A DNA stretch of 45,892 nucleotides from the NCBI GenBank assembly GCA_051439605.1, contig JBFRWN010000056.1:1-45892 (forward strand). Reading direction: 5' to 3'. Below the pieces are notes generated by a model. It saw nothing but the letters and a program-made list of their open reading frames with translations, had not been told where the DNA came from and did not search any database. The position numbers and the translations under genes were made by a program. This document shows, piece after piece, positions 27,757 to 45,892 of this stretch (positions within the stretch are counted from its first letter, which is position 1; each line of letters starts with the position of its first letter). Origin of the DNA: Synechococcus sp. GTDB taxonomy: Bacteria; Cyanobacteriota; Cyanobacteriia; Thermostichales; PCC-7336.

Positions 27757-27878
27757 CGTTCGAGTCAGGTATCGATCGATCTTGGTTCAACAAGATGTCT
27801 ATTTCGGCAAGCGATACCGAACCTGTGGCTGCACGATCGGGCCTAAACGGGATGACAAAGGCCGTCGTTGGATTTGGG

Positions 27879-29207: not shown

Positions 29208-30073
29208 AACAGGTTCAGCTCCTTGAGACCTTCAATGGGTTCTGTAACCGAGCAGGAACCGAAGGAGCGGAATAACTGCTGGCGGGCTTCGATCAATTGC
29301 GAGAGGGTGAGAAAGAGATCGCCACAGCCGATTCCCCCATCCTCGATTTGGAAGCGATCGATACGGGCTTCGTGCAAGATAACGAGTCCTTCTTCAGTCG
29401 TTACCTCGTGTGAATAGGCCAATGCTGCCAAGATGGCTAAATTGAGAAAACCATGCATGGAGGCAAGTCTACCGTTGGGCAGAGAATGACGAGCGTGCAA
29501 CGGATGGTGAAGTCCTGCAGTGGCCTTGAACGGCACCTGAAGTTCAGCGCAAGTCATGACAAACTGACACACGTGTGCAGTGTTGGGAAATGCCTCGGGA
29601 TTGAGCCCCCCCATGCGCACTTTGGCTGCTGCACCGGTCTCTTGCAATACCGCAATGTAGGAATCTGAATCTTCGAATGAAGGAATTTCGAAGAAGGCAT
29701 CCACCCCCGTTGGTAGGTGGGGCAGCATGCTTTCAATGTCAGCAGGTTGCAGTAGGGGAGGAAACTCTAGCGCGGCGATATCCCCTTGTCCTCGCAGATC
29801 GCTGGACTCAATTCTCTCCAAGTCCAGCTCCCAATCTTTGGAAACGATGGCAGCGATCGGGATCGGCTCCACTGCCCCTAAGAATGGCAACCAATCTTCG
29901 AATTCTGGCAACCGAGATATCGGCAGCACAAACCGACCCAACATCCAACCCCGATCTGAGGAGCGGTATCGAGCGTAATGGCGCATGGCTTGTGGTAGAT
30001 CGAGCCGAGCGGGGGGAAACAACCCGGCATAGTCAACAATGGACGATAACAAGGTCTTGACTGAAGCATGCAT
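29204..30073 (-). CDS. Conserved hypothetical protein coupled to fahA
   Basis: VDYAGLFPPA, KVRMGG, FKATAGLHHP, HGFLN, SFGSCS..EP motifs; its stop overlaps the fahA start (ATGA). Confidence 0.75.
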   Translation of the reverse strand: MHASVKTLLSSIVDYAGLFPPARLDLPQAMRHYARYRSSDRGWMLGRFVLPISRLPEFEDWLPFLGAVEPIPIAAIVSKDWELDLERIESSDLRGQGDIAALEFPPLLQPADIESMLPHLPTGVDAFFEIPSFEDSDSYIAVLQETGAAAKVRMGGLNPEAFPNTAHVCQFVMTCAELQVPFKATAGLHHPLHARHSLPNGRLASMHGFLNLAILAALAYSHEVTTEEGLVILHEARIDRFQIEDGGIGCGDLFLTLSQLIEARQQLFRSFGSCSVTEPIEGLKELNLL

Positions 30074-30115
30074 AGGGCTCTTGCCTCTGAAATGCGCCAA
30101 TCAACTCTTGGGGGG

Positions 30116-30673
30116 TTAGTCCAAGGGCAGAGAGGTAGATACTTTTATTTCATCTAAGACGATGCTGGTACGAATTCGGTCCACCCCCGGAATTTGGGCA
30201 ATCTGTGCGGACAAGAACTGGGCTAAATGCCGGTGGCTGGCCACCACCACTTTCAACAGATAGTCAAATTCGCCGCTGAGATGGTGGCACTCTAACACCT
30301 CGGGCAACCCCCGCACGCGATCGCAAAATTGAGCCACGCATTCCGGCTGATGGCGGGTCAAGGTCACCTGAGCAAAACACAAGACATCCAACCCCAGCGC
30401 CTCTCGATTAACCAGAGCAACGTAGCGATCGATGCAACCGTTGCTTTCCAGCTTTTTCAATCGCTTCTGCAGACCAGGGGCAGACAGATTGACCCGACGG
30501 GCCAATTCAGCACTGCTCAGCCGACCGCTCTCCTGTAGTAGATGAAGGATCTGCCGATCCTTGTCGTCGAGCTGCCTGAGTAAATCTCGATTCAAAACAG
30601 TCGATTGTGCCTGAGTGGCGTTGTCGTCATATCGCCTCTCCAATTGCGTGCCCTTTTGAATTGAGCAGCCCAT
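30116..30673 (-). CDS. Lrp/AsnC family transcriptional regulator
   Basis: LDDKDRQILHLLQESGRLSSAELARRVNLS HTH; EVLECHHLSGEFDYLLKV ligand-binding domain; divergent from hppD. Confidence 0.92.
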   Translation of the reverse strand: MGCSIQKGTQLERRYDDNATQAQSTVLNRDLLRQLDDKDRQILHLLQESGRLSSAELARRVNLSAPGLQKRLKKLESNGCIDRYVALVNREALGLDVLCFAQVTLTRHQPECVAQFCDRVRGLPEVLECHHLSGEFDYLLKVVVASHRHLAQFLSAQIAQIPGVDRIRTSIVLDEIKVSTSLPLD

Positions 30674-30959
30674 TTGTTTGATTGCTCAGCCCATCTAAGG
30701 GCGCGGAGCGATAGCGTTTAACTGGCTAGCAAGTTAAATAATGAATCTAAATCAAGCTTATCGGTTAACTTTCAATAGTAGGCAATCCGATCCTAGAAAA
30801 TTTAAAATCAGATAAGAGGGCACATGGTTTGAGACCGCTACTTTATACCTAACGCCAACTGCCCCACCCATTCTTCTGTGTGAAGAGTTATTCGATCGCC
30901 TTGGGAGAGGCGGCCGCACATCCTGGCAGCTGGCTAAGCTACGGGAGAGGAGGATTTTC

Positions 30960-32048
30960 ATGAGCGACTTTTGCCCCATGCTGGGATTCGACCATCTCGA
31001 ATTTTATGTCGGGAATGCCCGCCAGGCAGCTCTCTATTACTCGAAGGGATTTGGATTTACCAATACTGCCTATCGAGGGTTGGAAACGGGTTATCGCAAG
31101 GCAGCCTCCTACGTCATGGAACAGGGGGATATCCGCTTGGTTCTCACCACTGCCCTCGGTTCAGACCTTCCCATGGCTCAAAGCGTATTGACCCACGGCG
31201 ATGGCATTGCCGTCATTGCCCTAGCGGTGCCGGATGTCGAAAGTGCCTACCGACAGGCGATCGCGCGAGGGGGGGGTGGAGCCATTCCCCCCACCACAGA
31301 ATCGGATGACGGGGGAACAATGTATTACGCTGCCGTCCGCGCCTACGGCGACATCCTGCTCAAGTTCGTCGATCGCAGCCGCTACAGCGGTGCCTTTGCC
31401 CCCCATTTTCATCCTCGCCAGCAAGGTGAGCTAAAGGGTGTCGGACTGACCCACATCGACCACGTCGTTGGCAATGTCGAGGTGGGGGCCATGGATCGGT
31501 GGGCTCAATACTTGGCGGATACCTTGGGGTTCGAGCTGCTGGTTCATTTCGACGAGAAAACTATTGCTACAGAGTATTCGGCGCTCCGTTCAAAGGTGAT
31601 GCAAGACCCATCGGGCCGGATCAAATTACCCATAAACGAACCTGCGGAAGGTCTGCGTAAGTCTCAAATTCAAGAATATTTGGACTACAACAACGGTCCT
31701 GGCATTCAACATGTCGCCTGCGCCACCCGCGACATCATCGCCACCGTTTCCCAATTACGCGCCGCTGGCGTGGAGTTTTTGGCAATTCCCCCCACCTATT
31801 ACGAGAACTTGCTAGAGCGAGTGGGTCCGATTGACGAGCCTGTGGAGAAACTGGCTGAATTGGGCATTCTGGTGGACCGGGATCGAGACGGGTACCTACT
31901 ACAGATTTTCACCCAGCCCGTGGAAGACCGACCGACATTGTTTTTCGAAGTCATCGAACGGCATGGAGCGCACGGATTCGGTGAAGGCAACTTTAAATCG
32001 CTGTTTGAAGCGATCGAACGAGAGCAGGCCCGACGAGGGAATCTCTAG
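30960..32048 (+). CDS. hppD: 4-hydroxyphenylpyruvate dioxygenase
   Basis: DHLEFYVGNA, IDHVVGNV, PINEPA, SQIQEYL, GIQHVA, GYLLQIFT, FFEVIER, GFGEGNFKSLFEAIEREQARRGNL. Confidence 0.96.
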   Translation: MSDFCPMLGFDHLEFYVGNARQAALYYSKGFGFTNTAYRGLETGYRKAASYVMEQGDIRLVLTTALGSDLPMAQSVLTHGDGIAVIALAVPDVESAYRQAIARGGGGAIPPTTESDDGGTMYYAAVRAYGDILLKFVDRSRYSGAFAPHFHPRQQGELKGVGLTHIDHVVGNVEVGAMDRWAQYLADTLGFELLVHFDEKTIATEYSALRSKVMQDPSGRIKLPINEPAEGLRKSQIQEYLDYNNGPGIQHVACATRDIIATVSQLRAAGVEFLAIPPTYYENLLERVGPIDEPVEKLAELGILVDRDRDGYLLQIFTQPVEDRPTLFFEVIERHGAHGFGEGNFKSLFEAIEREQARRGNL

Positions 32049-32070
32049 CGTCTAGCTGCAAGGTGCAGCA

Positions 32071-33249
32071 ATGTATTACTACACCCTGGGGCAAGTGCCC
32101 CACAAACGCCACACTCAATTTCGCCAACCGGACGGTTCTTTGTATCACGAAGAGGCGATCGGTACCCACGGTTTCTCCGGGGCGCAATCGTTGCTCTACC
32201 ACCTGCGCCCACCCACCCAACTGCACAGAATCGTGATGGAGGCCCCCCCCGAGATTGCCTACGAAGGGGCTGGCCCCCTGCGGCCCCGCCACTTGCGCAC
32301 AGCAGCCGTGACTCGGGGAGGAGATGCGATCGCCGCTCGAACCCTGCTGATGAACAACGCAGATATCGCCATTTCCATCGCTTGCCCGACGGAACCGATG
32401 TCCTATTGGTATCGCTATGCCCACGGTGACGAGGCAGTGTTCGTTCACGACGGCAGCGGCTTACTAGAAACTCAGTTTGGCAACCTCCGCTATCGTCCAG
32501 GGGATTACGTCATCATCCCCACCGGTGTCTTGTGGCGCATCCTCCCCGATGCTGATGTGGAGCAGCGCATGCTGGCGATCGAAGCGAACGGACATATCGA
32601 CCCCCCCCCGCGTTACCTCAATTCCGAAGGCCAATTCCTGGAACATGCTCCTTACTGCGAGCGAGATATCCGTCCGCCAGAGGAGCTGGTGACCCACGAT
32701 GAAGCCGGAGAGTTCGAGGTGCGGGTCAAAGCCAGAGGATGTACGACTCGATACCTCTACCGCCACCATCCGTTAGATGTTGTCGGCTGGGACGGGCATC
32801 TTTGGCCGTTTACGTTCAACATCGAGGACTTCGAACCAATTACGGGTCGCGTTCACCAACCACCGCCGGTGCATCAGACCTTTGCCGGTCCTGGTTTCGT
32901 CGTGTGCTCTTTTGTGCCGCGCCTGTTCGACTACCATCCCCAATCCATACCAGCCCCCTACAACCATTCCAATGTGGATTCAGACGAGGTGCTCTATTAC
33001 GTAGAAGGCCAATTTATGTCTCGCAAGGGCATCGAACGGGCCTCCATCACCTTCCACCCCAGCGGCATTCCCCACGGTCCCCATCCAGGCACCTACGAAG
33101 GGTCGATTGGCCAACACCGTACGGAGGAATTGGCGGTGATGATCGACACCTTTCGACCGCTGAAACTCACGGCGATCGCCGCTGATTTAGAAGACAAAGA
33201 CTATCCCTACAGCTGGACCCCTGCACTCACCGGAGGAACAACATCGTGA
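32071..33249 (+). CDS. hmgA: Homogentisate 1,2-dioxygenase
   Basis: HKRHTQFR, HPLDVVGWDG, RVHQPPPVHQTF, PAPYNHSNVDSDEVLYY, HPSGIPHGPHPG, ELAVMIDTFRPL. Confidence 0.93.
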   Translation: MYYYTLGQVPHKRHTQFRQPDGSLYHEEAIGTHGFSGAQSLLYHLRPPTQLHRIVMEAPPEIAYEGAGPLRPRHLRTAAVTRGGDAIAARTLLMNNADIAISIACPTEPMSYWYRYAHGDEAVFVHDGSGLLETQFGNLRYRPGDYVIIPTGVLWRILPDADVEQRMLAIEANGHIDPPPRYLNSEGQFLEHAPYCERDIRPPEELVTHDEAGEFEVRVKARGCTTRYLYRHHPLDVVGWDGHLWPFTFNIEDFEPITGRVHQPPPVHQTFAGPGFVVCSFVPRLFDYHPQSIPAPYNHSNVDSDEVLYYVEGQFMSRKGIERASITFHPSGIPHGPHPGTYEGSIGQHRTEELAVMIDTFRPLKLTAIAADLEDKDYPYSWTPALTGGTTS

Positions 33250-34169
33250 CCCAAGCCTTTACCACTCCCCCCACTCGACTATCCCTATCCGAGCGCATGC
33301 GCGAGCGCTGTCGTCGGGGGGAACTCACCCAGGCTCAAGTGGATGACTTTCGGTCTTTTCTGCTGGAGGTGGAACTGAAACTCCTGCGGCATCCCATCAT
33401 CCTGCACAACGCCTATACCCATTGGTTCCAGAAGGGGACAGCCACGGACGAAGAACTGCGCCACTTTATCCGCCAGTTCTCGGTGTTTTCCAACCAATTC
33501 CTGGTTGCGGCGCTACAAAAGGTCATTAACACCCCCACCCTGCAACAATCGCGAGCCAGCCGGGAAATTTTGCTGAACGAGTTGGGGGTGATTTACCGCA
33601 AACCCGGCGAATCCAAAGGCGATCGCGCTGCCATGACGGCAGTGGAAAAAGATTTGGAGGGGGACCCCGAGCTGGTCAGTACGGAAGGGACGGTGGATGG
33701 TGGAACCTGCCGCTTCCGAGCCGCCCACTTCGAGTGGCTGTTAGGGGTGGCGCAGGGGTTGGGCCTGACGTTTGCAGACATCGGCCAGCGCAAGCACGCT
33801 CGACCCACCACCCTACATTTTTGCGACGAGCTGATTCGCCTTTACGGCAGCGACGACCCCCAAATTGCCGAGGGGGCCAGCTTTGCGGTGGAAAATTGGG
33901 CGGCGGCTGGATTCTGGCAGGAGCTGGAGGACGGATTGCTGCATATCAAACTGACGCGCCATCCCCAGTTGCGGTTGGCCTTCTTTAGCTGGCATAACCG
34001 AGTGGAGGCGCAGCACGCCGGGCATACGCTGGAGGAACTGGAAACGGTCTATTTCAGCCCGAATTTCGATCGCGATAAGTTCTTCCAAGGGGGACGAGAA
34101 ATTCTGGCGGCGATCGCAATTTTCTGGGATGGCCTCAATGGCGATCGCTTGAATGGGGTTTGCAGTTAG
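33246..34169 (+). CDS. Heme-oxygenase-like (TenA/PqqC/CADD-like) putative dimetal redox enzyme
   Basis: Helical protein with NELG, AAHFEW, FAVENW and FFSWHNRVEAQHA (H-x3-E-x2-H) ligand-like motifs; GTGA overlap with the hmgA stop. Confidence 0.6.
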   Translation: MTQAFTTPPTRLSLSERMRERCRRGELTQAQVDDFRSFLLEVELKLLRHPIILHNAYTHWFQKGTATDEELRHFIRQFSVFSNQFLVAALQKVINTPTLQQSRASREILLNELGVIYRKPGESKGDRAAMTAVEKDLEGDPELVSTEGTVDGGTCRFRAAHFEWLLGVAQGLGLTFADIGQRKHARPTTLHFCDELIRLYGSDDPQIAEGASFAVENWAAAGFWQELEDGLLHIKLTRHPQLRLAFFSWHNRVEAQHAGHTLEELETVYFSPNFDRDKFFQGGREILAAIAIFWDGLNGDRLNGVCS

Positions 34170-34315: not shown

Positions 34316-35161
34316 GTGGCTGCTGCATCCGAAACCCTTCCTGAGAATTTGAGCCTGTATCGGTACAAGCGGACTAACAAGGCTTACACCGAGGATTTGG
34401 GGGATGGCGTACAGCTGACGCTGATGCTGATTCCGTCTGGGGAATTTATGATGGGGTCTCCCGAGAGCGAGCCGGAAAGCAACGATAGCGAGCGGCCGCA
34501 GCACAGGGTAACGATCCGGCAGTTTTTGATGGGACGATATCCAGTTACCCAGGCCCAGTGGAGAGTGGTGGCGGGTTACGACCGCAGCGATCGGGATTTG
34601 AAGCTCGACCCATCAGATTTTAAAGGAGATAACCGCCCGGTGGAGAACGTGTCTTGGGATGATGCCCAAGAGTTTTGCAAGCGACTGTCTGTCAAAACGG
34701 GTAAGGACTATTGCCTGCCCAGCGAAGCGCAGTGGGAATATGCTTGTCGGGCCGGGACGGAAACTCCGTTTCACTTTGGCGAGACGATTACAACCGATCT
34801 AGCGAACTATCACGGTAGTTATTCTTATGGTGGTGGCCCGACAGGAGAGATTCGAGGAAAAACAAGCGAGGTCGGTATCTTTCCTGCCAATGATTGGGGG
34901 CTGAACGACATGCACGGCAACGTTGTGGAATGGTGCGAGGACGTCTGGCATGACAGCTATGAAGGAGCCCCTAAGGATGGTAGTGCCTGGATAAAGACGA
35001 ACCGCGAAAAGACAAGCAGGCTGCTGCGGGGCGGTTCCTGGTTCAACAGTCCTTGGTATTGCCGTTCGGCCTCTCGCAGCTTCTATTCGCGCGGCCTCAT
35101 CGACGACTTCGTGGGTTTTCGTGTCTGTTGCGTGCCCCCGAGGATTCTTCTTAGCGATTAA
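34316..35161 (+). CDS. Stand-alone FGE-sulfatase (CLec-fold) protein, DGR target 1
   Basis: FMMGS, PVTQAQW, PVENVSWDDA, LPSEAQWEYACRAG, DMHGNVVEWC, RGGSW, GFRVCC; the 3' end is VR1. Confidence 0.92.
   Translation: MAAASETLPENLSLYRYKRTNKAYTEDLGDGVQLTLMLIPSGEFMMGSPESEPESNDSERPQHRVTIRQFLMGRYPVTQAQWRVVAGYDRSDRDLKLDPSDFKGDNRPVENVSWDDAQEFCKRLSVKTGKDYCLPSEAQWEYACRAGTETPFHFGETITTDLANYHGSYSYGGGPTGEIRGKTSEVGIFPANDWGLNDMHGNVVEWCEDVWHDSYEGAPKDGSAWIKTNREKTSRLLRGGSWFNSPWYCRSASRSFYSRGLIDDFVGFRVCCVPPRILLSD
35021..35140 (+). repeat. DGR variable repeat VR1
   Basis: 120-nt ungapped match to TR 43587-43706; 16 mismatches at TR adenines and 1 at a non-A (CGC>CGT). Confidence 0.95.
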
Positions 35162-35229
35162 GCCCTTAGTCCCTTAGCCCTTGGCACTTTGTAGGGATTT
35201 TACGATTTGTTAAAGGAATGGGTGAGTGA

Positions 35230-36282
35230 TTGATGCTGAAACTTTCAAATGAGGATCGTGGGAAACTTCTTGAAGCTATTTTGTCTGCCTACCCCAATCC
35301 AGAAGACCTTGAAACCTTCGTTAATTTAGAACTAGATAGAAACATTCATGTGGTTGCCGGCAGTGGAAACCATAGAACCGTTGCATTCAAGTTGATTCAA
35401 TGGGCGATCGCCAAGGGATATATTGATGACTTAATCCTTGCGCTACAGAGAGACATCCCAAACCGTCCGGATATTCAACATTTTTGTGGACAAGTGTTGC
35501 ATCAACGTTTGAATCTGAACGTTTTCGATGTGCCTTTAGAGGGATTGCAATTAAAGCTTGAAGCGTCTGCTTGGGATATAGATATTCGTTCTGAAGAACT
35601 TGAGCGATTCCTTCCCAAGAGATTTAGCTTTGAAGCAGATGTAGGTGAACTGCTTCGAGGGTTGAAACTTGCGAACTCAGTTTGCAAAATAACGTTTGCC
35701 GATCGCAGCCCAGATGAAAGTGGTACGGGGGTTTTGATTGCCCCGAACTTGGTGTTAACCAACTACCATGTCTTGAGTTTGGAAAGAGATGCCGATCTAA
35801 ACGAGGTTGCGCGGGTCTGTCGATTTGAGTTTGGTTACGTCAGCCCTAAGTTTGGTGAATTCCGTCGCACCCAAACCTTGAACGCTGATGTGGATACTCC
35901 TGTAATTGTTGCAAGTCCGATTGATAAGCTCGACTATGCGCTCATACGTCTCGGTGGCGGAGCGGACGTTGCGATTGACCCCGTCCCGCTCAACCATTCA
36001 ACGGAATTGGGAAAAAACTCACCCCTCAATATCCTTCAACATCCTGAAGGAGAACAAATGAAAGTGTCCCTGAGTAACAATGGAGTGATAAAAACTAATA
36101 AGGCGCGTGGACTGGTGCTATACGTCAATCCGACTAAGCAGGGTTCGAGTGGGTCTCCGTGCTTTAACGAAAACTGGGAGCTGGTGGCGCTGCATCATAA
36201 AGGCTTAGCCACACCCTTTGGCAGTATCCGGGAAGGTATTCTGTTCAGTGCAATTTATCCAGAAATCTCGTTTGTTCTTTAA
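35230..36282 (+). CDS. EAD1 domain + trypsin-like serine peptidase effector
   Basis: N-terminal LLEAILSAYP...LELDRNI...VAFKLIQWA..G...L (EAD1-like); catalytic triad LTNYHV / LDYAL / GSSGSP, then LVALHH. Confidence 0.85.
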   Translation: MMLKLSNEDRGKLLEAILSAYPNPEDLETFVNLELDRNIHVVAGSGNHRTVAFKLIQWAIAKGYIDDLILALQRDIPNRPDIQHFCGQVLHQRLNLNVFDVPLEGLQLKLEASAWDIDIRSEELERFLPKRFSFEADVGELLRGLKLANSVCKITFADRSPDESGTGVLIAPNLVLTNYHVLSLERDADLNEVARVCRFEFGYVSPKFGEFRRTQTLNADVDTPVIVASPIDKLDYALIRLGGGADVAIDPVPLNHSTELGKNSPLNILQHPEGEQMKVSLSNNGVIKTNKARGLVLYVNPTKQGSSGSPCFNENWELVALHHKGLATPFGSIREGILFSAIYPEISFVL

Positions 36283-36304: not shown

Positions 36305-36721
36305 ATGGGCCTTCGCATAGTTTCCGAACAATTTGAGAGTAAGACTGCCCCCAATATTCCATCAGATGGGTACAGCGATCGCCTCAGGAAGTACATTCCT
36401 ACGGAGGCAGTAGCATATTGGCTGGCTGTAAGTAGCATGATTCAAAGTGCTGGTGACGATATTCCAAAGGACATTTTGCTCTGGATTGTTTTTGCCATTG
36501 GTTTAGCGTTCACTTTTGGCTGGACGCGTATGAAAACTGATGAGTCTGGTAAGTCAGTGGCATGGACGCAGATAGTCCTTTCCTGCGGTGCATTTGTGAT
36601 TTGGGTTTTTGCTACCGGTGGGCCGTTCTCTGCGTGGGAGTGGTACCGACCGCTATATGGTTCTTTGGCGTTAGCGACCTATACAACTGCGATTCCCTTA
36701 GTTATCCCCCCTGAGAAATAA
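36305..36721 (+). CDS. Small multi-pass membrane protein in the conflict operon
   Basis: YSDRLRKYIPTEAVAYW followed by about 4 hydrophobic segments; 22 bp after the protease and 3 bp before the next gene. Confidence 0.75.
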   Translation: MGLRIVSEQFESKTAPNIPSDGYSDRLRKYIPTEAVAYWLAVSSMIQSAGDDIPKDILLWIVFAIGLAFTFGWTRMKTDESGKSVAWTQIVLSCGAFVIWVFATGGPFSAWEWYRPLYGSLALATYTTAIPLVIPPEK

Positions 36722-36724
36722 GCT

Positions 36725-38191
36725 GTGGCGATCGATTGGAACAAAGCAAACTTCGAGGTTTTCTTAGACGCACTACAGGAGGTTTACCCAAGTGCAAATG
36801 AGCTAGAAATATTTGCCGATTTGAGACTGGATAGAAATCTTTCAGAGATTACTAGCCCCAATGATAACTTGCGCGTCGCAGTATACAAATTATTGAAGCT
36901 GGGAAAACGAGAGGATAGCCTCGATGAGTTTTTTGCTGCATTTCGTCAGGAGAACCCAAATCACCTTGCGGTAAAAAGAATAGAGAATCCTCTTGTCAAG
37001 AGAATTTATAAGATTTCACAGGAAAACTGGGACGCTCTATTCGATTGCTTTGATGAGAGACGCGATAGTATTTACATACCCACATCATTTATTCGTGCGT
37101 TCCAACGCCTAAAGAGAGATTTTTGGAAAGAACGGCCCGAGCATCCTCCGCTAACAAACCTTTCACAAATCCGAGATTTACTAATAATTTTCGACGAACC
37201 TAAGCTTGCTGTTCGGTTTGTAGAGCAATTTATCATTGAGGTAAAGCGCTCAGATAGCAAAAGAGATTTCTCAGAACTGCTTGATTGGCGCGATCGCATT
37301 GTTGGGGAATTTGATGTTGATTCTGAAGAACTCGAACCTGATAAGATCGTTGAAAAACATGGTTACTTGCTGATCTCGTTGAGACTAAGTGGTCGGCTAA
37401 CTCGAGATGGCCCCGATGTGACTGTCTTGCCCGAGCTATATGTAGAGAACGAGCCAGAATCTTTAGAGTTCAATGTTTCTTCAGTGACCTGTCCATTAGA
37501 GGAAGTTGCCAGTCATATATCAGACTGGGTTCGTAGTGCAGAAGAAGCTTTAATTCCTTATAACTGTGCACGCCGCCTAACACTTGAGTTGTTCTTGCCC
37601 TGCGTACATTTAGAAGAAGATGTTGCTGCTCGGTGGGAAATTCGAGATAGGCTAAACAATTCCCGTTTTATGGGGACTGAGACTAGATACATCGTTCGTT
37701 CCACAGAGCGTGCTTTAGATAAAATCCTTCGCTCGTTTATCGAAGACAATTGGGCAAAGCTGCAAACAGTTGATGAAAACAGTCATGCAAGCAGTTACGT
37801 TCACGTACAAAAAGATTGTCCTAAGGTAGGAGAGCTCACAGCTGCATTAGATGACAAATTACTCTTAAATCTAGCCGCCGAGCTACCAGCTGAGCGAGAA
37901 GAGCGCATAGAGATTTACTACGACATCATAAATTCAGGTGTGCCCATTGCCGTTTGGTCTTGTGAATGTGGCGATCGATCTGTTGATGAGCGAGAGACTG
38001 AGTTTAACTATCTGACAGAGGAGAGCCAATTGACTAATTTTGCGGATTTGGCCAAAAAGTGGAGGACAAGACGAGTCCAGCCAGAAAACAAAGTTGCCAA
38101 ACATATGAGAATCTTATGTGACTGCCCGGAGCGATGGCCCAATTTCCCAGACCTCGATCGCGATGAAGACTTGCTGATTGCAATTTATTAA
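36725..38191 (+). CDS. EAD1 + VMAP (vWA-MoxR associated protein)-like component
   Basis: N-terminal EAD1-like (ALQEVYPS..ELE..LDRNL...VYKLL...ENP); C-terminal LELFLP, IVRS.ER, GVPIAVW, DCPERWP motifs as in VMAP-C; directly upstream of MoxR. Confidence 0.72.
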   Translation: MAIDWNKANFEVFLDALQEVYPSANELEIFADLRLDRNLSEITSPNDNLRVAVYKLLKLGKREDSLDEFFAAFRQENPNHLAVKRIENPLVKRIYKISQENWDALFDCFDERRDSIYIPTSFIRAFQRLKRDFWKERPEHPPLTNLSQIRDLLIIFDEPKLAVRFVEQFIIEVKRSDSKRDFSELLDWRDRIVGEFDVDSEELEPDKIVEKHGYLLISLRLSGRLTRDGPDVTVLPELYVENEPESLEFNVSSVTCPLEEVASHISDWVRSAEEALIPYNCARRLTLELFLPCVHLEEDVAARWEIRDRLNNSRFMGTETRYIVRSTERALDKILRSFIEDNWAKLQTVDENSHASSYVHVQKDCPKVGELTAALDDKLLLNLAAELPAEREERIEIYYDIINSGVPIAVWSCECGDRSVDERETEFNYLTEESQLTNFADLAKKWRTRRVQPENKVAKHMRILCDCPERWPNFPDLDRDEDLLIAIY

Positions 38192-38210
38192 TACCGCTAT
38201 TGGAAGACCT

Positions 38211-39302
38211 ATGACCTGGAAGTACTTCTCCGGTAATTGCCCTGACAAACCTAATCCACTTACCGAACTACCCGAACGTCCCCCTTGGCGGGAGTTTTTA
38301 CCTTTGGAGGATGTTGATGAAGATAATGACAATAAATATTGGAAGTCTCTACGTAGTTTGGCTGAGGCGGATAAGCGATCGCAGCAACGGGGAAAAACCT
38401 TTCGGGTGGAACTTAAAGATGGATATTCTAAGGTAATCGATGCTGTCAATGCAGCCATCCATTTACGCCGTCCGCTGTTGATTACTGGAGTCCCTGGATC
38501 GGGAAAGACCTCTTTGGCCTATGCGATCTCCTACGAGTTACAACTTGGCCCCGTGTTGGTATGGCCGATTACCGCAAAATCGAACCTGACGGATGCGTTG
38601 TACCAGTACGATGCGATCGCTCGCTTGCAGGATGCTCAACTCGATAAAACACGAGAGGGGGATAAGAGCAAAAAAGAAGAAGGGCAATTGGGGGACTACA
38701 TCCAGTTAGGGCCAGTGGGAACGGCCTTTTTACCCTCCCGTCTTCCTCGGGTTTTATTGATAGATGAGATCGATAAAAGCGATCTGAACTTGCCCAACGA
38801 TTTACTCAATTTGTTTGAAGAGGGGGAATACGAGATCCCGGAATTGGTTCGCCGCAAACGCAGTCAGGACAACGCGAATGAAGAATCGGTAGTTGAAGTA
38901 CGAACCGCGGATAAAGGGGAAACAAAGCCCATCGTTAAAGGTCGTGTGAAGTGCTGCGAATTCCCCATCACGATTATGACCAGCAATGGTGAACGCGAGT
39001 TTCCTCCAGCCTTTCATCGCCGGTGTTTGCGGGTGAAAATGCCCGATCCCACCCCCGCATCGTTGCTGCCAATTGTGAAATCGCACTTCGAGCAGGCAGA
39101 TAAGAACGGATGGAGCCAGAAGGAAGAGAATCTGACCGATCTTATTGGCGAATTTTTAGATCGGGGGAATAAAGCCGATCGCGCCACCGACCAACTATTG
39201 AATGCCATCTACTTAATGACCCGCGAGGAAAGTCCTGACGCGCAAGAAATGGAACGCCTCAAAACGTTACTGTTTAAGCGTCTGGGCGAGGCGGATTCAT
39301 GA
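38211..39302 (+). CDS. MoxR-type AAA+ ATPase
   Basis: AVNAAIHLRRPLLITGVPGSGKTS (Walker A), VLLIDEIDKSD (Walker B), TSNGEREFPPAFHRRC, RATDQLLNA. Confidence 0.92.
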   Translation: MTWKYFSGNCPDKPNPLTELPERPPWREFLPLEDVDEDNDNKYWKSLRSLAEADKRSQQRGKTFRVELKDGYSKVIDAVNAAIHLRRPLLITGVPGSGKTSLAYAISYELQLGPVLVWPITAKSNLTDALYQYDAIARLQDAQLDKTREGDKSKKEEGQLGDYIQLGPVGTAFLPSRLPRVLLIDEIDKSDLNLPNDLLNLFEEGEYEIPELVRRKRSQDNANEESVVEVRTADKGETKPIVKGRVKCCEFPITIMTSNGEREFPPAFHRRCLRVKMPDPTPASLLPIVKSHFEQADKNGWSQKEENLTDLIGEFLDRGNKADRATDQLLNAIYLMTREESPDAQEMERLKTLLFKRLGEADS

Positions 39303-42067
39303 GTGAACGGGAAGAAACAGACGGACTGAAGAACCGAATCGGTCAGGTTGTAGCGCTTCTGGCCGAGGAACGCAAATATACCAGTATTGAAATTGCCGAG
39401 ACATTGTGGCTGGCGTTGCAGATCGAGCCAGCAGCCAAAGTTGAGTTGTCTCAGAAACCGGAAAAAACGCCAACAGCGACCGCAATTGCCTCAAAGCTTG
39501 AGGTTAACACTTCAAACATTAATACCCCTCTCATCGAACCCTCTAGATCGGGGCCCCAGGCTAAACTAACTGCTCAGGCTCCCGCAGGTGTATTGCCACG
39601 CGATGTACTCCCTGTTTGGCTTCCCGACCCGACCATGCTGAAGGATCCCCTTGCGATCGTTGGGGCTCTTAAACCTCTACTGCGAAAAGTGAGGGCTGGA
39701 GATGGGAAACGTCTGGACGAACGTGCAACCGTCAATCGCATCGCTCGCACGCGGCTGTGGTTGCCGGTATTGCAAGCAGAGCAAGAGCCGTGGTTTGACA
39801 TCGTGCTGGTGGTAGATCGCGGTTCCTCGATGCATCCTTGGCAGCGTTTAGTTGACGATTTAGTCGGTATTTTTCGGCGTTACGGTGCGTTTCGAGATCT
39901 TCAGGTGTTCGATCTGGAGGTTCACGATCCAACGGAGGAGCCTGAAGATAGAGTTCTGTTGCGAACTCATGCCAACCATCCGGGGCACCGTCCCAGCGAA
40001 CTGATTGATAAACGCGGGAGACGGATCGCGATTGTGTTGAGCGACTGTGCTGGTAAGTATTGGTGGGATGGAACGTTGCTGCCAATGCTGCAGGCTTGGG
40101 CCAAGATTATGCCCACTGTGGTGTGGCAGATGTTGCCAGAGTGGATGTGGGAGAGGACAGCTTTAGGTCGAGGTGTGGAGGTGACTCTACGAAATGACAG
40201 ACCTGGAGCGGCGAATCAGCAGTTAATTCAGCAGCTGTTGGAGCAAATGTCTGAGGAACCTAGTGATATCGATCGACGGGTTTCTGTCCCGGTGGTGACT
40301 AGCGAATTACGAGATCTGGAAAATTGGAGTGCGATGCTGGCGGGGGATAGCCGCGAGGCCACGCCTGGGTTTCTGTTGCCCCAACAACAGGGGCAGCTGG
40401 TGCCGAGGTCAAGAACGATTGAACAGCTGGCTCGGGAACGGGTGGATCGAAATTTTGAAGGGGATGGTGCTGTTGAACGGGCTAGAGCGATCGAGCTGGA
40501 GGTGGAGGCAATCGCCCGTACCAGAGTGCAGCGGTTTCGCAAGCTAGCGTCACCTCAGGCCCGCCGGTTGGTGATGCTGCTGGCTGCGGCTCCCGTGATT
40601 ACATTGCCGGTGATGCGCTTGATTCGCGATTCCATGCTGCACGACACGCGATCGCCGCTACCAGTGGCGGAGGTGTTTTTGAGCGGGCTGTTGCAGCGGT
40701 TGGAGGGGCAGGAGGGTGTCAAACGTAGGGAGCAGGTGCAATATGACTTTGTGAAAATGGTGCGTGAAGTGTTGTTGGGGGTGTTGCCAGAGGCGGACAC
40801 GATTGAGGTGATTAACAGCGTGTCTGCGGAAGTGGAGAGGAATTGGAGTAAGACGTCAAAGCAGGATTTTCGAGCATTTCTGACCGATCCCAATTCCGAT
40901 ACACCGGAGGGAATGGAGGGGGTGCGATCGTTTGCCAGCGTGACGGCCACGATTCTGGAACAGCTGGGGGGGGAATATAAGGAGTTTGCTCAAGAACTGC
41001 GCTATGGGTCGGGTGAAGGACCAAGGCCACCAAAACGTTCAGAAAAGGAGCCTGACTTTACCCTGCATGACGTGGAATACAAAGTCGCCAAACTGATAGT
41101 AGACTTCCCTCCCTTACAAGAGTGCAAATTCGAGTCCGTCACCATTGCTGCCGTCCAAGATCGCTTCGACTTCGAGACTGCAACCCTAACAAGAAAATCA
41201 AAAGATTTGGGGCCGGATCGAGGATGGCGTCGCGAGAACCGCCGAGGGGTTGCTTGGGGCTACAGCGAAATTCTGAACGACGATCCCGATAATCCCATCG
41301 TCCTAGACACAATCGCGATCCCCGGCGGCAGCTTTCAGATGGGAGCACCCAAGGATGAATTGGAGTGCCGAGATGAGGAACGGCCCCAACACGCAGTCAC
41401 TCTGCAGCCCTTTCACATCGGCCGCTATCCGGTTACCCAAGCCCAGTGGCGAGTGGTGGCAAGTTACGACTCTGTAGACAAAGACCTCAAACTAGATCCG
41501 TCGGAGTTCACAGGAGGTAACCGCCCGGTTGAGAGCGTGACTTGGGAGGATGCGCAGGAGTTTTGCAAGCGGTTATCTGCCAAAACCGGCAAGGACTATC
41601 GCTTACCTAGCGAGGCGGAATGGGAGTATGCCTGCCGAGCTGGAACCACCACCCCGTTTCATTTTGGCGAAACGATTACGACCGACTTGGCAAATTATTG
41701 TGGCACAGATGATAAAAAATTCGGTTGGTCAGGGTCTTACGGCGATGGCCCTAAAGGGGAATATCGCGAGCAAACCACCGAGGTCGGTATCTTTCCTGCC
41801 AACGGGTGGGGGCTGCACGACATGCACGGGAACGTGTGGGAATGGTGCGAGGACGACTGGCATGACAGCTATAAGGAAGCACCGGATGACGGTAGTGCTT
41901 GGGTAGAAACGAGCCGGGAGGGGTCTGATAGGCTGCTGCGGGGCGGTTCCTGGGTCAACGATCCTTGGTATTGCCGTTCGGCCTCTCGCATCGTCGATTC
42001 GCGCGGCGTCATCAACGGCCTCGTGGGTTTTCGTGTCTGTTGCGTGCCCCCGAGGGCTCCTTCTTAG
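39299..42067 (+). CDS. SAV_2336-like vWA domain protein with C-terminal FGE-sulfatase/CLec domain, DGR target 2
   Basis: EIAETLWLA, LDERATV, LVVDRGSSM (MIDAS-like), LSDC, LPEWMWERTAL, AEVFLSGLL; C-terminal FGE domain ending in VR2; ATGA overlap with MoxR. Confidence 0.9.
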   Translation: MSEREETDGLKNRIGQVVALLAEERKYTSIEIAETLWLALQIEPAAKVELSQKPEKTPTATAIASKLEVNTSNINTPLIEPSRSGPQAKLTAQAPAGVLPRDVLPVWLPDPTMLKDPLAIVGALKPLLRKVRAGDGKRLDERATVNRIARTRLWLPVLQAEQEPWFDIVLVVDRGSSMHPWQRLVDDLVGIFRRYGAFRDLQVFDLEVHDPTEEPEDRVLLRTHANHPGHRPSELIDKRGRRIAIVLSDCAGKYWWDGTLLPMLQAWAKIMPTVVWQMLPEWMWERTALGRGVEVTLRNDRPGAANQQLIQQLLEQMSEEPSDIDRRVSVPVVTSELRDLENWSAMLAGDSREATPGFLLPQQQGQLVPRSRTIEQLARERVDRNFEGDGAVERARAIELEVEAIARTRVQRFRKLASPQARRLVMLLAAAPVITLPVMRLIRDSMLHDTRSPLPVAEVFLSGLLQRLEGQEGVKRREQVQYDFVKMVREVLLGVLPEADTIEVINSVSAEVERNWSKTSKQDFRAFLTDPNSDTPEGMEGVRSFASVTATILEQLGGEYKEFAQELRYGSGEGPRPPKRSEKEPDFTLHDVEYKVAKLIVDFPPLQECKFESVTIAAVQDRFDFETATLTRKSKDLGPDRGWRRENRRGVAWGYSEILNDDPDNPIVLDTIAIPGGSFQMGAPKDELECRDEERPQHAVTLQPFHIGRYPVTQAQWRVVASYDSVDKDLKLDPSEFTGGNRPVESVTWEDAQEFCKRLSAKTGKDYRLPSEAEWEYACRAGTTTPFHFGETITTDLANYCGTDDKKFGWSGSYGDGPKGEYREQTTEVGIFPANGWGLHDMHGNVWEWCEDDWHDSYKEAPDDGSAWVETSREGSDRLLRGGSWVNDPWYCRSASRIVDSRGVINGLVGFRVCCVPPRAPS
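41933..42052 (+). repeat. DGR variable repeat VR2
   Basis: 120-nt ungapped match to TR; 16 mismatches at TR adenines and 1 non-A (CGC>CGT). Confidence 0.95.
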
Positions 42068-42124
42068 CTTTTAAGCCCTTAGTCCCTTAGCCCTTAACGG
42101 TTTAATTTTCTTAGCACTTTCTTA

Positions 42125-42139
42125 ATCGCCGCAGGCGAT
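42125..42139 (+). promoter_or_regulatory. Post-VR hairpin ATCGCC-GCA-GGCGAT (candidate DGR target-recognition stem-loop)
   Basis: Perfect 6-bp stem with GCA loop; identical copy at 44786-44800 downstream of VR3. Confidence 0.6.
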
Positions 42140-42148
42140 CGAATTATC

Positions 42149-42505
42149 GTGGCTATATCAACCAAGGGCGAACTCCCCATTGTGCAAAAGACCTACGACC
42201 TCATCAAGTGGTACGTCCCCATCCTGAATCGCCTTCCGCGCGACCACAAATTTGGCCTGGGCGATCGTATGATAAGGTCCCTCTACGATCTGCTGGAAGG
42301 CTTTGTCTCCGCCCGCTATGCCAAAAACAAAGGGGCTATCCTCGAACCCTTGAGCAGCAAGTTAGACGTCCTGCAATACCAAACCCGCCTGCTATTGGAC
42401 TTCGAGCTGGTCAAGGTCAAACGCTACGAATTTGCCAGCCGCAAACTCGAGGAGCTGGGGCGACAATTGACCGGTTGGTTGGGAGCATTGCGAACTCAAC
42501 CATGA
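42149..42505 (+). CDS. avd: DGR accessory variability determinant Avd
   Basis: 118-aa basic helical protein ELPIVQKTYDLIKWYVPILNRLPRDHKFGLGDR...ELGRQLTGW; ATGA overlap with the RT start. Confidence 0.92.
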   Translation: MAISTKGELPIVQKTYDLIKWYVPILNRLPRDHKFGLGDRMIRSLYDLLEGFVSARYAKNKGAILEPLSSKLDVLQYQTRLLLDFELVKVKRYEFASRKLEELGRQLTGWLGALRTQP

Positions 42506-43566
42506 AACGTCATGGCAACCTGTATCCGCAAATTACCGCATTTGAGAACCTGCTAATTGCGGCCAGAAAAGCCGAACGGCAATAGCGCTATCGCCCGTCA
42601 GTCTTGGCCTTTAACGATCGCCTCGAACGGGAGCTGCTGCAGCGGCATCGGGAACTGCAGGCGAAAAGCTATCGACCAGGAAGCTACAAGACCTTCGAGA
42701 TTTACGAGCCCAAGCACCGCGTCATCTCTGCTGCCCCCTACCGCGATCGCGTTGTACACCATGCTCTGTGCAACATCATCGTCCCCATCTTCGACAGAAC
42801 CTTTATCACCACCACCTACGCTAACCGCAAAGGCTACGGCACCCACCGCGCCCTGAAGAAATTCGTCCAATACACCCGCTCCAGTCGCTACGTACTGCAA
42901 TGCGACATCTGCAAGTATTTTCCATCCATCGATATCGCCATACTCAAGCAGCTGATTCGACGCAAGCTCAAATGCAAAGACACCCTGTGGTTAATCGATA
43001 CCATTCTGGACAATCGCAGTGAAGGGGAAACCCCGATCAACTACTTTCCAGGAGACACCCTGCTCACTCCGCTAGAGCGCCCCAAAGGACTGCCCATCGG
43101 CAATCTCAGCAGCCAGTTTTTTGCCAATGTCTACCTCAGCGGCTTCGATCGCTACGTCAAAGAAACCCTCAAAGTCTCGAAATACCTTCGTTACGTTGAT
43201 GATTTTTGCTTGTTCGGCGATGACCGAGAATTTCTGAGTGACTGTCGCACAAAGATCGAAGCCTATCTCGCCAGCCTGCGCTTGAAGATTCATCCCATTA
43301 AAAGTCAGCTAATGCAAACCCGCATCGGTCCCAGATTTGTAGGCTTTCGAGTCTTGCCCGATCGCATTCGGGTGCGTAACCACAACCTGCAAACCGGACG
43401 CAGGCGTCTCAAACAGCTTCAGTTGGCCTATGCAAACGGTCAGCTATCGGAGCAAGAGGTGTCCCAACGTTTGCAGAGTTGGAATGCCCATCTAGCCCAC
43501 GGCGACACCTGGCGACTGCGCCAGAAAATCTTTAACAATCTGAATTTACCAAACCCGCTACAGTAA
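42502..43566 (+). pseudogene. DGR reverse transcriptase interrupted by an in-frame TAG at 42583-42585
   Basis: ATG 42502 [36 protein letters not shown] continues in the same frame into [46 protein letters not shown]. Confidence 0.9.
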
Positions 43567-43586
43567 AGGCGGGGCGGGCAGGGTAG

Positions 43587-43706
43587 CTGCTGCGGGGCGG
43601 TTCCTGGAACAACAATCCTAGGAATTGCCGTTCGGCCTCTCGCAACAACAATTCGCGCGACAACATCAACAACAACGTGGGTTTTCGCGTCTGTTGCGTG
43701 CCCCCG
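43587..43706 (+). repeat. DGR template repeat (TR)
   Basis: Intergenic, 20 bp after the RT stop. In target frame it reads [40 protein letters not shown], with 25 adenines in 11 AAY codons plus AGG, GAC, ATC. Confidence 0.96.
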
Positions 43707-43860
43707 AGCACTCTTCGCCGCGAGAGCTGGCTGGTGGGAATCAGTCGGGAGTGCATGAAGAGTCCAGACCCGTTCCGGCGATGCGCAAGCATCCAAAAAT
43801 CCCCAGCGGTTGAATAGCTTGGTAGGGTTAGCCCGAACAGTCATCCAACCGCTCCTTCTC
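43707..43860 (+). ncRNA. Structured DGR RNA spacer downstream of TR
   Basis: ACTCTTC/GAAGAGT pairing (43710-43716 with 43757-43763), GATGC-GCAA-GCATC hairpin (43780-43793), AGCGGTTG/CAACCGCT stem (43805-43812 with 43846-43853). Confidence 0.55.
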
Positions 43861-43885: not shown

Positions 43886-44737
43886 ATGGCAGACGGAACT
43901 ACTACCCCTGAACGACGGTTCGTCCTTAACCGACGACCCCATAGCGGGCAGTACTTCACCGAGCCGCTGGGCCAGGGAATCGGCATCGATATGATGCTGA
44001 TACGAGGGGGAACCTTTTTGATGGGTTCCCCTGCTGGTGAAATTGGCAGTAACGACAGCGAGCAACCTCAACACAAAGTCACAGTACCGACGTTTTTCAT
44101 GTCCCGTACCCCCATTACCCAAGCGCAATGGAAGCGGGTCGCAGATCCCATTCCTGATAGAAAAGGTCGAAATTATCTAGAGCCAGATCCTTCTAGATAC
44201 AAAGGGGATAACCGCCCAGTCGAACAGGTGAGCTGGGACGATGCTACCGAGTTTTGTCAGTTACTTTCACAGCAGACCGGACGAACCTATTGTCTACCCA
44301 GCGAAGCGGAGTGGGAATACGCCTGCCGCGCAGGAACTACAACCCCGTTTCACTTTGGGGAAACGATAAGCGACGAACTGGCAAACTACGATGCAAGAAA
44401 GACTTACGGAAGAGGGGTTGTCGGAGAGTATCGGGGTGAGACGACTGAAGTCGGTAATTTCCCACCCAACCGATTTGGTTTATTCGACATGCACGGCAAC
44501 GTATGGGAGTGGTGCCAAGATCATTTTAATAGTAGCTATGAAGGTGCACCTGAGGACGGGAGTGCATGGTTAGAGACGAACGATGAAGGGACAGCAAAAG
44601 TGCTGCGGGGCGGTTCCTGGGACGACGTTCCTGGGAATTGCCGTTCGGCCTCTCGCGTCATCGGTTCGCGCGGCATCGACGACGGCGTGGGTTTTCGCGT
44701 CTGTTACGTGCCCCCGAGGATTCTTCTTAGCTCTTAA
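43886..44737 (+). CDS. Stand-alone FGE-sulfatase (CLec-fold) protein, DGR target 3
   Basis: FLMGS, PITQAQW, PVEQVSWDDA, LPSEAEWEYACRAG, DMHGNVWEWC, RGGSW, GFRVC; the 3' end is VR3. Confidence 0.92.
   Translation: MADGTTTPERRFVLNRRPHSGQYFTEPLGQGIGIDMMLIRGGTFLMGSPAGEIGSNDSEQPQHKVTVPTFFMSRTPITQAQWKRVADPIPDRKGRNYLEPDPSRYKGDNRPVEQVSWDDATEFCQLLSQQTGRTYCLPSEAEWEYACRAGTTTPFHFGETISDELANYDARKTYGRGVVGEYRGETTEVGNFPPNRFGLFDMHGNVWEWCQDHFNSSYEGAPEDGSAWLETNDEGTAKVLRGGSWDDVPGNCRSASRVIGSRGIDDGVGFRVCYVPPRILLSS
44600..44716 (+). repeat. DGR variable repeat VR3
   Basis: Matches TR with 15 adenine-position substitutions, a 3-nt deletion, one internal non-A change (TGC>TAC) and a mismatch at the first base. Confidence 0.93.
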
Positions 44738-44810
44738 GCCCTTAGCCCCTTAGCCCTTGATGGTTTAATTTTTTGCACTTTCCCCATCGCCGCAGGCGAT
44801 CCGAATTATC

Positions 44811-44891: not shown

Positions 44892-45892
44892 ACTGGAGTT
44901 TTAACTAACGACCGGTCAAAAAAAATGTCGATGCATGGCACCGACTGTCATAGGGTCAAGGTCACGAATGCAAATGGACCTGCCCTCTATGATTTTCCAA
45001 CGCCTGAAGCAGTTTCGCCAAACGATCTACGGCCTACTGGGTCGTGGCAAGGATGTGCTGTTTGAGCTAATGGATGCAGCATTAACTACGTCCGAGGTCA
45101 CCTCGTTAGTCAGACTGTCCCAGAGTCCGTTATTTCGCCGTCAGTGGGCGAGCATCTACAGTGCACTCAAGGCAGCTCGCCTGCCTCGCAAGAAGCTGAT
45201 GAAGCAGTTGCTGGCTGAAATTCCCTGTGAACGAGCACCGTTGTTGGCAGGGGACGCGAGCTTATGGCCTCGGCCCGAAGCCAAGACTTTGAAAGACCGA
45301 ACCTTTGGGCGGGGTAGCCGTGGGGGCATCTGTGTGGGCCAAAGCTACAGTACTTTGGCGTGGATTCCCGAGGCAGAAGGGAGTTGGGCGCTTCCCCTGC
45401 AGCACGAGCGCATCACCAGCTTTGAAACGCCAGGGAGCAAAGGAGCCTTTCAACTCAAACAAGTCTGTCGGTATTTACCAGTGCGTCCGTTAGTCGCTTA
45501 TGACCGGGGGTATGGGAATGGTCGCTTTGTCAACGCCACCACTGAGGTCGAAGCAGATCTGCTGCTGCGCTTAGCAGGAAATCGCTGTGTGTGGGGCGCT
45601 CCCCCACCGTACTCTGGCCGAGGAGCGCCCCGAAAACATGGGGTCAAATTCAAGTTCAGTGCCCCTGAGACCTGGCCAGTCGCCGACGAAACTATCGAAG
45701 TGGATGACCCCAAGCTGGGCCGGGTCAAGGTCAGCCGTTGGCACAACTACCATTTTCGCAACTCCCCCAAGCGCCCCATGGACATTCTGCGAGTGGAGGT
45801 GCTGCAGCCGAAAGGCCGCAGGCGCAAGTTCAAACCTCTCTGGTTGGCCTGGGTGAGGGAGAAGCTCCTGCCGCTGGAACAGCTGTGGAAAA
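44892..45892 (+). mobile_element. Insertion sequence (IS701-like DDE element), incomplete at window edge
   Basis: Abrupt break of avd homology at 44891/44892 followed by a transposase ORF; left end is approximate. Confidence 0.7.
44974..45892 (+). CDS. DDE transposase (IS701-like), 3'-partial; absent from the ORF track because it has no stop in the window
   Basis: Manual translation: ...DVLFELMDAALT...SPLFRRQWASIYSAL...LAGDASLWPRPEAKTLKDR...GQSYSTLAWIPE..GSWALPL...AYDRGYGN...GRGAPRKHG...KPLWLAW; start at 44974 or 44989. Confidence 0.8.
   Translation, partial: MDLPSMIFQRLKQFRQTIYGLLGRGKDVLFELMDAALTTSEVTSLVRLSQSPLFRRQWASIYSALKAARLPRKKLMKQLLAEIPCERAPLLAGDASLWPRPEAKTLKDRTFGRGSRGGICVGQSYSTLAWIPEAEGSWALPLQHERITSFETPGSKGAFQLKQVCRYLPVRPLVAYDRGYGNGRFVNATTEVEADLLLRLAGNRCVWGAPPPYSGRGAPRKHGVKFKFSAPETWPVADETIEVDDPKLGRVKVSRWHNYHFRNSPKRPMDILRVEVLQPKGRRRKFKPLWLAWVREKLLPLEQLWK

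Follow-up and report, generated by a model that had tools for sequence, protein, structure and literature searches.

Most cyanobacterial DGRs sit together with MoxR ATPases, peptidases and vWA targets, and the proteins that they diversify have been proposed to act as antigen sensors (Dore et al., PMC10907252). The closest described systems are the cyanobacterial clade 5E DGRs by VMAP/MoxR ternary conflict systems, in which CLec targets, either short or extended by a long N-terminal domain, have MoxR, VMAP-C, trypsin and EAD genes as neighbours, a template repeat (TR) serves several targets, a transposase adjoins and a genome can have more than one DGR (PMC10907252, PMC7517822). Stop avoidance through AAY codons, multiple targets, non-A changes and 3-nt indels have likewise been described (PMC5758913, PMC7826257, PMC12875486). 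DGRs with a reverse transcriptase (RT) broken by a nonsense codon, and with variable repeats (VRs) that differ almost only at adenines, have been reported as recently inactivated (Schillinger et al. 2012, PMC3521204), and in another survey stops, truncations, poor repeats or short contigs led to the exclusion of more than half of the DGR candidates (PMC5758913).

The window, i.e. the whole 45,892-nt stretch of Synechococcus sp. DNA that was analysed (contig JBFRWN010000056.1 of assembly GCA_051439605.1), carries a DGR cassette of a known cyanobacterial kind, with multiple targets, AAY codons, a 3-nt indel and a neighbourhood that are already in print. All the clade 5E traits listed above recur. 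The cassette differs from clade 5E DGRs in the nonsense codon of its RT, in its three in-cassette targets (4 of the 102 RT clusters in the comparative set below had three VRs, within limited flanks) and in the lack of a Pfam vWA match in target 2. With the BPP-1 DGR (bRT-Avd, 8UB7; PMC5703328; 10.1101/344556; 10.1101/2023.10.23.563531; PMC3240598) it shares an RT with the I-G-x-x-x-S-Q motif and a position equivalent to Lys29, Avd, a predicted TR-spacer duplex, Avd stem-loop and cPRT-stop-like elements, an IMH/IMH* difference and a hairpin after two of the VRs, while it differs in its gene order (avd-RT-TR), its chromosomal location and its three targets. Compared with the inactivated DGRs of Schillinger et al., the stop codon here is present in contigs of two samples and the genome holds a second, intact DGR.

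Layout of the cassette and its surroundings

The cassette and its neighbours comprise the following features, all on the + strand and in this order:

34316..35161, + strand: target 1, a CLec/FGE-sulfatase-only protein of 281 aa
35230..36282, + strand: EAD1 plus trypsin-like peptidase, by domain match
36305..36721, + strand: 138-aa hydrophobic protein with no Pfam or NCBIfam match
36725..38191, + strand: EAD1 plus VMAP-C protein, by domain match
38178..39302, + strand: MoxR-like AAA ATPase (AAA_5)
39299..42067, + strand: target 2, 922 aa, with an SAV_2336 N-terminal domain (NF041121, 371 bits) and a C-terminal CLec domain (PF03781)
42149..42505, + strand: avd, an open frame of 118 aa (NF033474, 123 bits against a cut-off of 80; PF22296)
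42502..43566, + strand: DGR reverse transcriptase, 354 codons, with LPIGNLSSQ and YVDD motifs and a nonsense codon inside
43587..43706, + strand: TR, 120 nt, with 25 adenines in 14 codons (from alignment; reading register inferred)
43886..44737, + strand: target 3, a CLec-only protein of 283 aa
44801..44892, + strand: decayed avd 5′ fragment, left over from the duplication of a block that spans target end and avd start
44935..45892, + strand: IS701-like DDE transposase, cut by the contig end

All three targets carry PF03781. The predicted structure of target 1 (pLDDT 90, from a 74-row alignment) matches PvdO, FGE structures and Treponema denticola TvpA (2Y3C, E 3.8e-21), and its VR aligns with the C-terminal segment of 2Y3C. 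TvpA thus shares with the window targets an FGE-type CLec fold and a C-terminal VR, but it is described as an outer-membrane lipoprotein, whereas the window targets lie in a peptidase/ATPase locus. The variable residues of target 1 (243-248, 255-257 and 260-265) fall mostly in loops and short strand or helix segments of the predicted model. No Pfam vWA match was found in target 2, in which the NCBIfam SAV_2336 N-terminal domain, above its cut-off, occupies the expected slot next to MoxR. This domain may be vWA-like.

The MoxR ATPase (AAA_5) and the VMAP-C/EAD1 protein are of the kinds expected in a VMAP/MoxR ternary conflict system, for which a role against phages or in cell death is a published proposal (PMC10907252). 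Among 80 related loci, which were found with the part of the RT that lies 3′ of the stop codon, 28 have a MoxR homologue, or 24 of the 46 with at least 9 kb of upstream sequence. By analogy with the published proposal, the three targets may serve as sensors.

Homologues of the 138-aa hydrophobic protein (36305-36721) occur in 3 of the 80 related loci. The segment 44717-44892 is a copy of the block that follows target 2 (tract, hairpin and avd start) and ends about 40 bases before the transposase gene, which suggests that the 3′ end of target 3 arose by duplication. Directly 5′ of target 1, at 30116-34169, lie a regulator, HPPD-like and homogentisate dioxygenase-like genes and a gene for a 307-aa protein without a Pfam match; these are probably unrelated to the cassette.

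Adenine-specific divergence of the repeats

Each target gene ends in a VR that matches the TR:

35021..35140, + strand: VR1, with IMH 35142-35150 and a repeat tract after it, and no perfect hairpin of at least 5 bp within 200 nt
41933..42052, + strand: VR2, with IMH 42054-42062
44600..44716, + strand: VR3, with an in-frame 3-nt deletion and IMH 44718-44726

Global alignment with the TR gave 16 A-site changes and a C>T at TR 43688 for VR1, 16 A-site changes and the identical C>T for VR2, and 15 A-site substitutions, a G>A at 43696 and an edge C>G at 43587 for VR3, in agreement with the tallies of the first-pass annotation (16+1, 16+1 and 15+1 internal). The deletion in VR3 removes two TR adenines (43660-43662, a placement ambiguous by a few bases). 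Pooled over the three VRs, 47 of 73 A sites but only 4 of 284 non-A sites are changed (Fisher p=5e-35), so the mismatches are anything but independent of the TR adenines. The variable segments read FNSPWY/SFY/GLIDDF (VR1), VNDPWY/IVD/GVINGL (VR2) and DDVPGN/VIG/G-IDDG (VR3), as first reported, and the proposal of one TR serving three CLec targets by DGR-type adenine mutagenesis is supported. In the 120-nt windows 5′ of the VRs the three target genes are only 49-77% identical; the near-identity of the repeats at non-A sites is therefore not plain paralogy. Changed adenines became G in 25 cases, T in 20 and C in 2, and C is likewise the rarest outcome with the Bordetella enzyme in vitro (PMC7826257), T and G being far commoner than C in BPP-1 as well. 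VR1 and VR2 agree at 15 of 25 A-site letters in addition to their common C>T, which may reflect either an altered TR base or a conversion event involving these two VRs.

The adenine codons of the TR are 11 AAY, AGG, GAC and ATC, with 13 adenines in first and 12 in second codon positions. Substitution of A yields stops only from AAA, AAG and AGA, none of which is present, and the stop-proof coding noted at first reading thus held. The same property is found in 87 of 398 forty-codon windows from ordinary genes of the window and in 5.5% of 20,000 TR shuffles, and the stop-proofing is genuine yet modest, a textbook DGR trait. The repertoire of about 1e15 suggested by the first-pass annotation stands as a count (4^25=1.1e15 DNA variants, giving 4.2e14 proteins), but a live repertoire is unsupported given the nonsense codon at RT position 28. 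A BLAST search of the TR against the 143-contig assembly, in which the window's contig ends in a transposase, found no remote VR of this TR; otherwise it returned the TR and VR of a second DGR on contig C88 and three short matches at chance level.

For a comparative set, 196 loci with an RT match were taken, from which 43 without a TR, 14 with a weak TR-spacer duplex, 9 without the spacer motif and 2 that were cut short were dropped. The 128 loci left form 102 clusters at 95% RT identity, of which 84 have VRs, 121 in total, each with at least 7 A changes and at most 4 non-A changes. Across these VRs, 0 of 72 adenines lying 20 to 3 bases before the first IMH/IMH* difference are changed, against 3 of 14 at 21 bases before it. 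The segment from −20 to −3 is a non-mutated 3′ boundary segment. At about 18 nt ahead of the base inferred to be templated first, it is longer than the coconversion boundary of BPP-1 (5-10 nt). In the window the first IMH/IMH* difference is at 43709, and the internal non-A changes lie at −21 (VR1, VR2) and −13 (VR3), at or beyond the boundary. The claim that the non-A changes fall in the A-free, IMH-like 3′ segment is right for the internal ones, which lie 3′ of the last adenine; the IMH/IMH* difference proper begins slightly beyond, at 43709. The window VRs supply 3 of the 12 non-A changes found at −29 to −3 across the 121 VRs, a slight excess.

Spacer RNA elements and the 3′ flanks of the variable repeats

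For the RNA of 43560-43860, folding predicts a duplex between TR and spacer, a stem-loop of 9 bp with a GNRA loop, a duplex between leader and spacer, and a further stem-loop carrying an A-run; no Rfam family reached its gathering score for the spacer RNA. The same elements, cPRT-stop included, have been described for cyanobacterial DGRs (10.1101/2023.10.23.563531). The elements of the RNA and of the VR flanks are:

43570..43579, + strand: 5′ leader strand of the predicted cPRT-stop duplex, with its partner at about 43768-43778 (predicted fold)
43708..43716, + strand: IMH*, complementary to the spacer primer segment apart from C43709
43727..43748, + strand: predicted stem-loop for Avd binding (9 bp, GNRA tetraloop)
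43757..43767, + strand: spacer primer segment with inferred priming A 43766; its complementarity to the VR IMH exceeds that to IMH*
43780..43798, + strand: cPRT-stop-like stem-loop, a GNRA loop and then an A-run
42063..42139, + strand: pyrimidine-rich tract of ~8-nt repeats, with a 6-bp GC hairpin with a GCA loop at 42125-42139
44727..44800, + strand: repeat tract and the same hairpin (6 bp, GCA loop, 44786-44800)

A CAG match to Bordetella Sp55-57 would place the priming base at A43766 and the first template base at G43706, the analogue of Bordetella TR G117. The priming A inferred in this way faces a TR A in 74 of 84 loci, unlike in BPP-1.

Spacer positions 43757-43765 form the reverse complement of 43708-43716 with one exception, C43709; at this position each of the three VRs carries G. 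This diagnostic base follows the spacer across the 84 DGRs, which were chosen on the spacer-TR duplex and not on the VR: 106 of 107 VRs have G where the spacer has C, and 13 of 14 have A where it has U. In the template the complementary base is present in only 4 of 93 clusters with spacer C (G in the TR) and in 6 of 9 with spacer U (A in the TR). When five positions are taken together with wobble allowed, full pairing is found in 103 of 121 VRs but in 5 of 84 TRs. At the next position the spacer has changed from U to C in two loci, whose three VRs have G while both TRs still have A. The change is mostly synonymous (AGG vs AGA). GC content does not account for the pattern: 42 of 75 spacer-C loci fall within the GC range of the spacer-U loci, and G is retained in 50 of the 51 VRs concerned, although spacer-U loci do lean AT-rich. 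Four changes of the spacer base map onto the RT tree; the VR follows in three or four of four independent pairs and never goes the opposite way, while the TR follows in about two. The second position gives 2 of 2. With fewer than six pairs, p<0.05 is out of reach for these tests, and the trees were quick ones (IQ-TREE, FastTree).

Pairing between the primer and the IMH was proposed for BPP-1 from one sequence comparison (Naorem et al. 2017, PMC5703328), and the integration of cDNA into the VR has been called ‘unanswered’ (PMC5703328) and ‘still mysterious’ (PMC12875486). The covariation supports this proposed targeting model. Within the openly accessible literature searched, no covariation study was found beyond the 2017 proposal. 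On balance, we lean slightly towards a clade-wide choice of targets that is read by RNA, in which the spacer primer segment would pair with the IMH of every VR, the diagnostic base being complementary in targets, mostly mismatched in the template and co-changing with the spacer; together with the pyrimidine tract this pairing may form a targeting code.

A short repeat tract follows all three VRs, and its core is found at only those three places in the genome. The 6-bp GCA-loop hairpin is present after VR2 and VR3 but not after VR1. Across the comparative set, 106 of 121 VR flanks are at least 70% pyrimidine, vs 2 of 333 ordinary gene ends at the same loci, with an 8-nt periodicity of 0.49 vs 0.34 in shuffled sequence and a flank likeness of 0.84 within loci (33 loci) vs 0.58 between them. 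The window's own tracts are milder (0.60-0.71 pyrimidine). Five CLec paralogues on other contigs were scored, of which three clearly have no tract, the one on C70 is borderline and the one on C34 runs into a spacer copy. Pairing of the tract with its own DGR RNA was rejected, cognate pairs being no better than GC-matched non-cognate ones (four RNA segments, 78-79 loci, Wilcoxon p 0.29-0.91), as was an intrinsic terminator made of tract and hairpin, none being listed at those places in a terminator scan. At a guess, the tract is a melting or protein-binding site. Cyanobacterial short tandem repeats are a rival origin for it. We found no description of the tract in the literature searched.

In BPP-1 the hairpin directly follows the IMH, whereas in the window it stands about 70 nt after the VR, behind the pyrimidine tract. 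Hairpins help homing but are not required for it (PMC3240598, PMC12875486), and a hairpin 3′ of the VR is not universal (34% in PMC5758913); the consulted portion of a Bacteroides preprint (PMC11601372) yielded no passage on the IMH or hairpins. At 35141-35230, VR1 has the tract and no hairpin, while the matching target of the related locus L013 seems to retain one. Possibly VR1 serves as a target more weakly than the others or has been retired.

The nonsense codon and the state of the cassette

The RT starts at ATG 42502, carries the IGNLSSQ and YVDD signatures of DGR-type RTs ((I/V/L)GxxxSQ and YxDD) and has Bordetella bRT as its best PDB match (E 9e-50). It is interrupted near its start, a feature missed by the first-pass annotation:

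42583..42585, + strand: TAG as RT codon 28, where homologues have an invariant Lys (bRT Lys29)

Among the 80 related loci, all 79 homologues that cover codon 28 carry Lys there, and in 78 of the 80 the alignment begins at residue 5 or before. The position corresponds to bRT Lys29, which touches the initiating template base and lies in the Avd-binding N-terminal extension (10.1101/2023.10.23.563531). Of the five closest homologues, four have AAG at this codon and one AAA, and a single A>T change thus explains the TAG. Otherwise the RT is well preserved, with three deviations (stop included) at 127 conserved sites, where homologues have 0-8, and a dN of 0.11-0.12 vs a dS of at least 1.5, from which we conclude that its loss is recent. 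The TAG appears without any other letter in one unbroken contig of run X1 (depth 29.7) and in one of X3 (depth 2.8). All four runs (X1-X4) are from one study, X1 may be the source sample, and the X2 and X4 pieces shown do not reach the TAG; X5 matched 0.05 of the sequence words and was left aside.

Two of the 80 homologues have internal stops. Related DGR RTs interrupted in this way include those of L055, L088, L003/L010, L114 and L120, and inactivation is no rarity in this clade. Locus L013, whose RT is 83% identical, has the same three-target layout and an open RT. The nearest named RT relatives are cyanobacterial. This type of RT also occurs in records titled non-cyanobacterial (L012, L033, L046, L059 and L060; Xanthomonas, Congregibacter, Parabeggiatoa, Obscuribacterales), of which L012 itself comes from a cyanobacterial genome and groups with L033.

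The genome has two RVT_1 matches, the window RT and that of C88. On C88, positions 25796-34020 hold a second, intact DGR with a TIR-domain-like protein, MoxR, a 1307-aa CLec target, avd, RT and TR. This DGR has its own TR and VR, an RT 63% identical to the window RT, and a spacer identical to that of the window in 104 of 166 columns. Its VR has five non-A mismatches and breaks the spacer-IMH rule at the diagnostic base despite the open RT. On C34 (3629-5002, − strand) lies a CLec gene, TIR-like at its start, whose end passes straight into a copy of the C88-type TR 3′ end and spacer (83% over 295 nt). Neither avd nor RT stands between the two, and the arrangement looks like the scar of a VR-by-TR recombination that removed the machinery. 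C70:127-636 is a decayed remote target of a C88-type DGR, changed at 20 of 30 A sites and at 14 non-A sites.

We consider it probable that the window holds a cyanobacterial CLec-type DGR that was functional until recently and has most likely been silenced. In the intact state, RT and Avd would bind the TR-spacer RNA and prime cDNA synthesis from the spacer, presumably at A43766 with G43706 as the first template base. Misincorporation would occur opposite the TR adenines, and the cDNA would take the place of the VR, which lies at the C-terminal binding site, in three CLec proteins of a trypsin/VMAP/MoxR conflict locus, the RNA primer probably helping to choose the target by pairing with each VR's IMH. 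A single A>T would then have turned RT codon 28 into TAG; the remaining RT, Avd and the RNA are intact, and the three VRs would therefore record past rounds of diversification. From these data we infer that the cassette is probably inactive, and the repertoire of about 1e15 is probably historical unless the C88 RT works in trans. Contigs of X1 run unbroken across the variable part of all three VRs and show no alternative letter, and one from X3 agrees with VR3; this weak sign of invariance covers the variant rows listed, and contigs drop rare variants. One X2 junction of VR2 with VR1 letters requires non-A changes, and it was attributed to a gene from another organism. Active DGRs may also appear invariant at such depth under purifying selection (PMC8144416).

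Diversification might instead continue in trans, with the intact C88 RT and either Avd acting on the local TR-spacer RNA, an explanation that we regard as unlikely. The C88 RT and Avd frames are open, spacer elements are conserved between the two loci, the local RNA is predicted to fold into all the expected elements, and the C88 primer segment pairs with all three window IMHs as well as the local one does; the window VRs are also cleaner at non-A sites (1-2 changes) than the VR of C88 itself (5), and trans activity within one DGR class has been described (PMC10907252). In the consulted portion of that source, however, the activity concerned one class with a matching TR, whereas the C88 RT has only 63% identity to the window RT. 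No VR variant is visible in the X1 contigs or at VR3 in X3, and each window VR has one non-A change in the segment where the other 118 VRs total nine, a mild sign of drift.

That the stop is an assembly error or a minority allele, most cells having an intact and active RT, strikes us as quite improbable: it is a single-base change of a kind that may represent a sequencing error (PMC3521204), and intact variants of degraded loci have been found in long reads (PMC10907252), but both the unbroken X1 contig and the X3 contig read TAG with no other letter. We give slightly less credence to low activity kept by read-through or by a shortened RT from the next start codon, TTG 42604. The 320-codon frame after the TAG keeps all catalytic motifs, but an RT begun at that TTG would lose residues 1-34, including N16, K28, other near-invariant N-terminal residues and most of the Avd-binding extension, and by eye it has no obvious ribosome-binding site. 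As for read-through, no amber suppressor tRNA (CUA anticodon) is present among the 42 tRNAs found, and TAG terminates other genes of the window. Finally, the letters common to VR1 and VR2 and the block duplication after target 3 could be read as marks of ordinary paralogous 3′ ends or gene-conversion products formed without retroelement activity. The mismatch distribution refutes this reading, to which we attach practically no weight: the differences from the TR are confined to adenines, the coding sequence upstream has diverged, and avd, RT and TR are adjacent.

The locus is thus an ordinary, probably frozen member of a well-described family, and it illustrates how one base can silence a DGR with three targets and leave these targets unharmed. 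The comparative result on the spacer and the IMH outweighs the locus itself in importance; compensatory changes that occur in nature, linking spacer RNA with target DNA, single out two positions for swaps. If targets are indeed chosen through the RNA, the 2017 model of primer-IMH integration would be testable by one-base swaps, and such DGRs would be retargetable by design.
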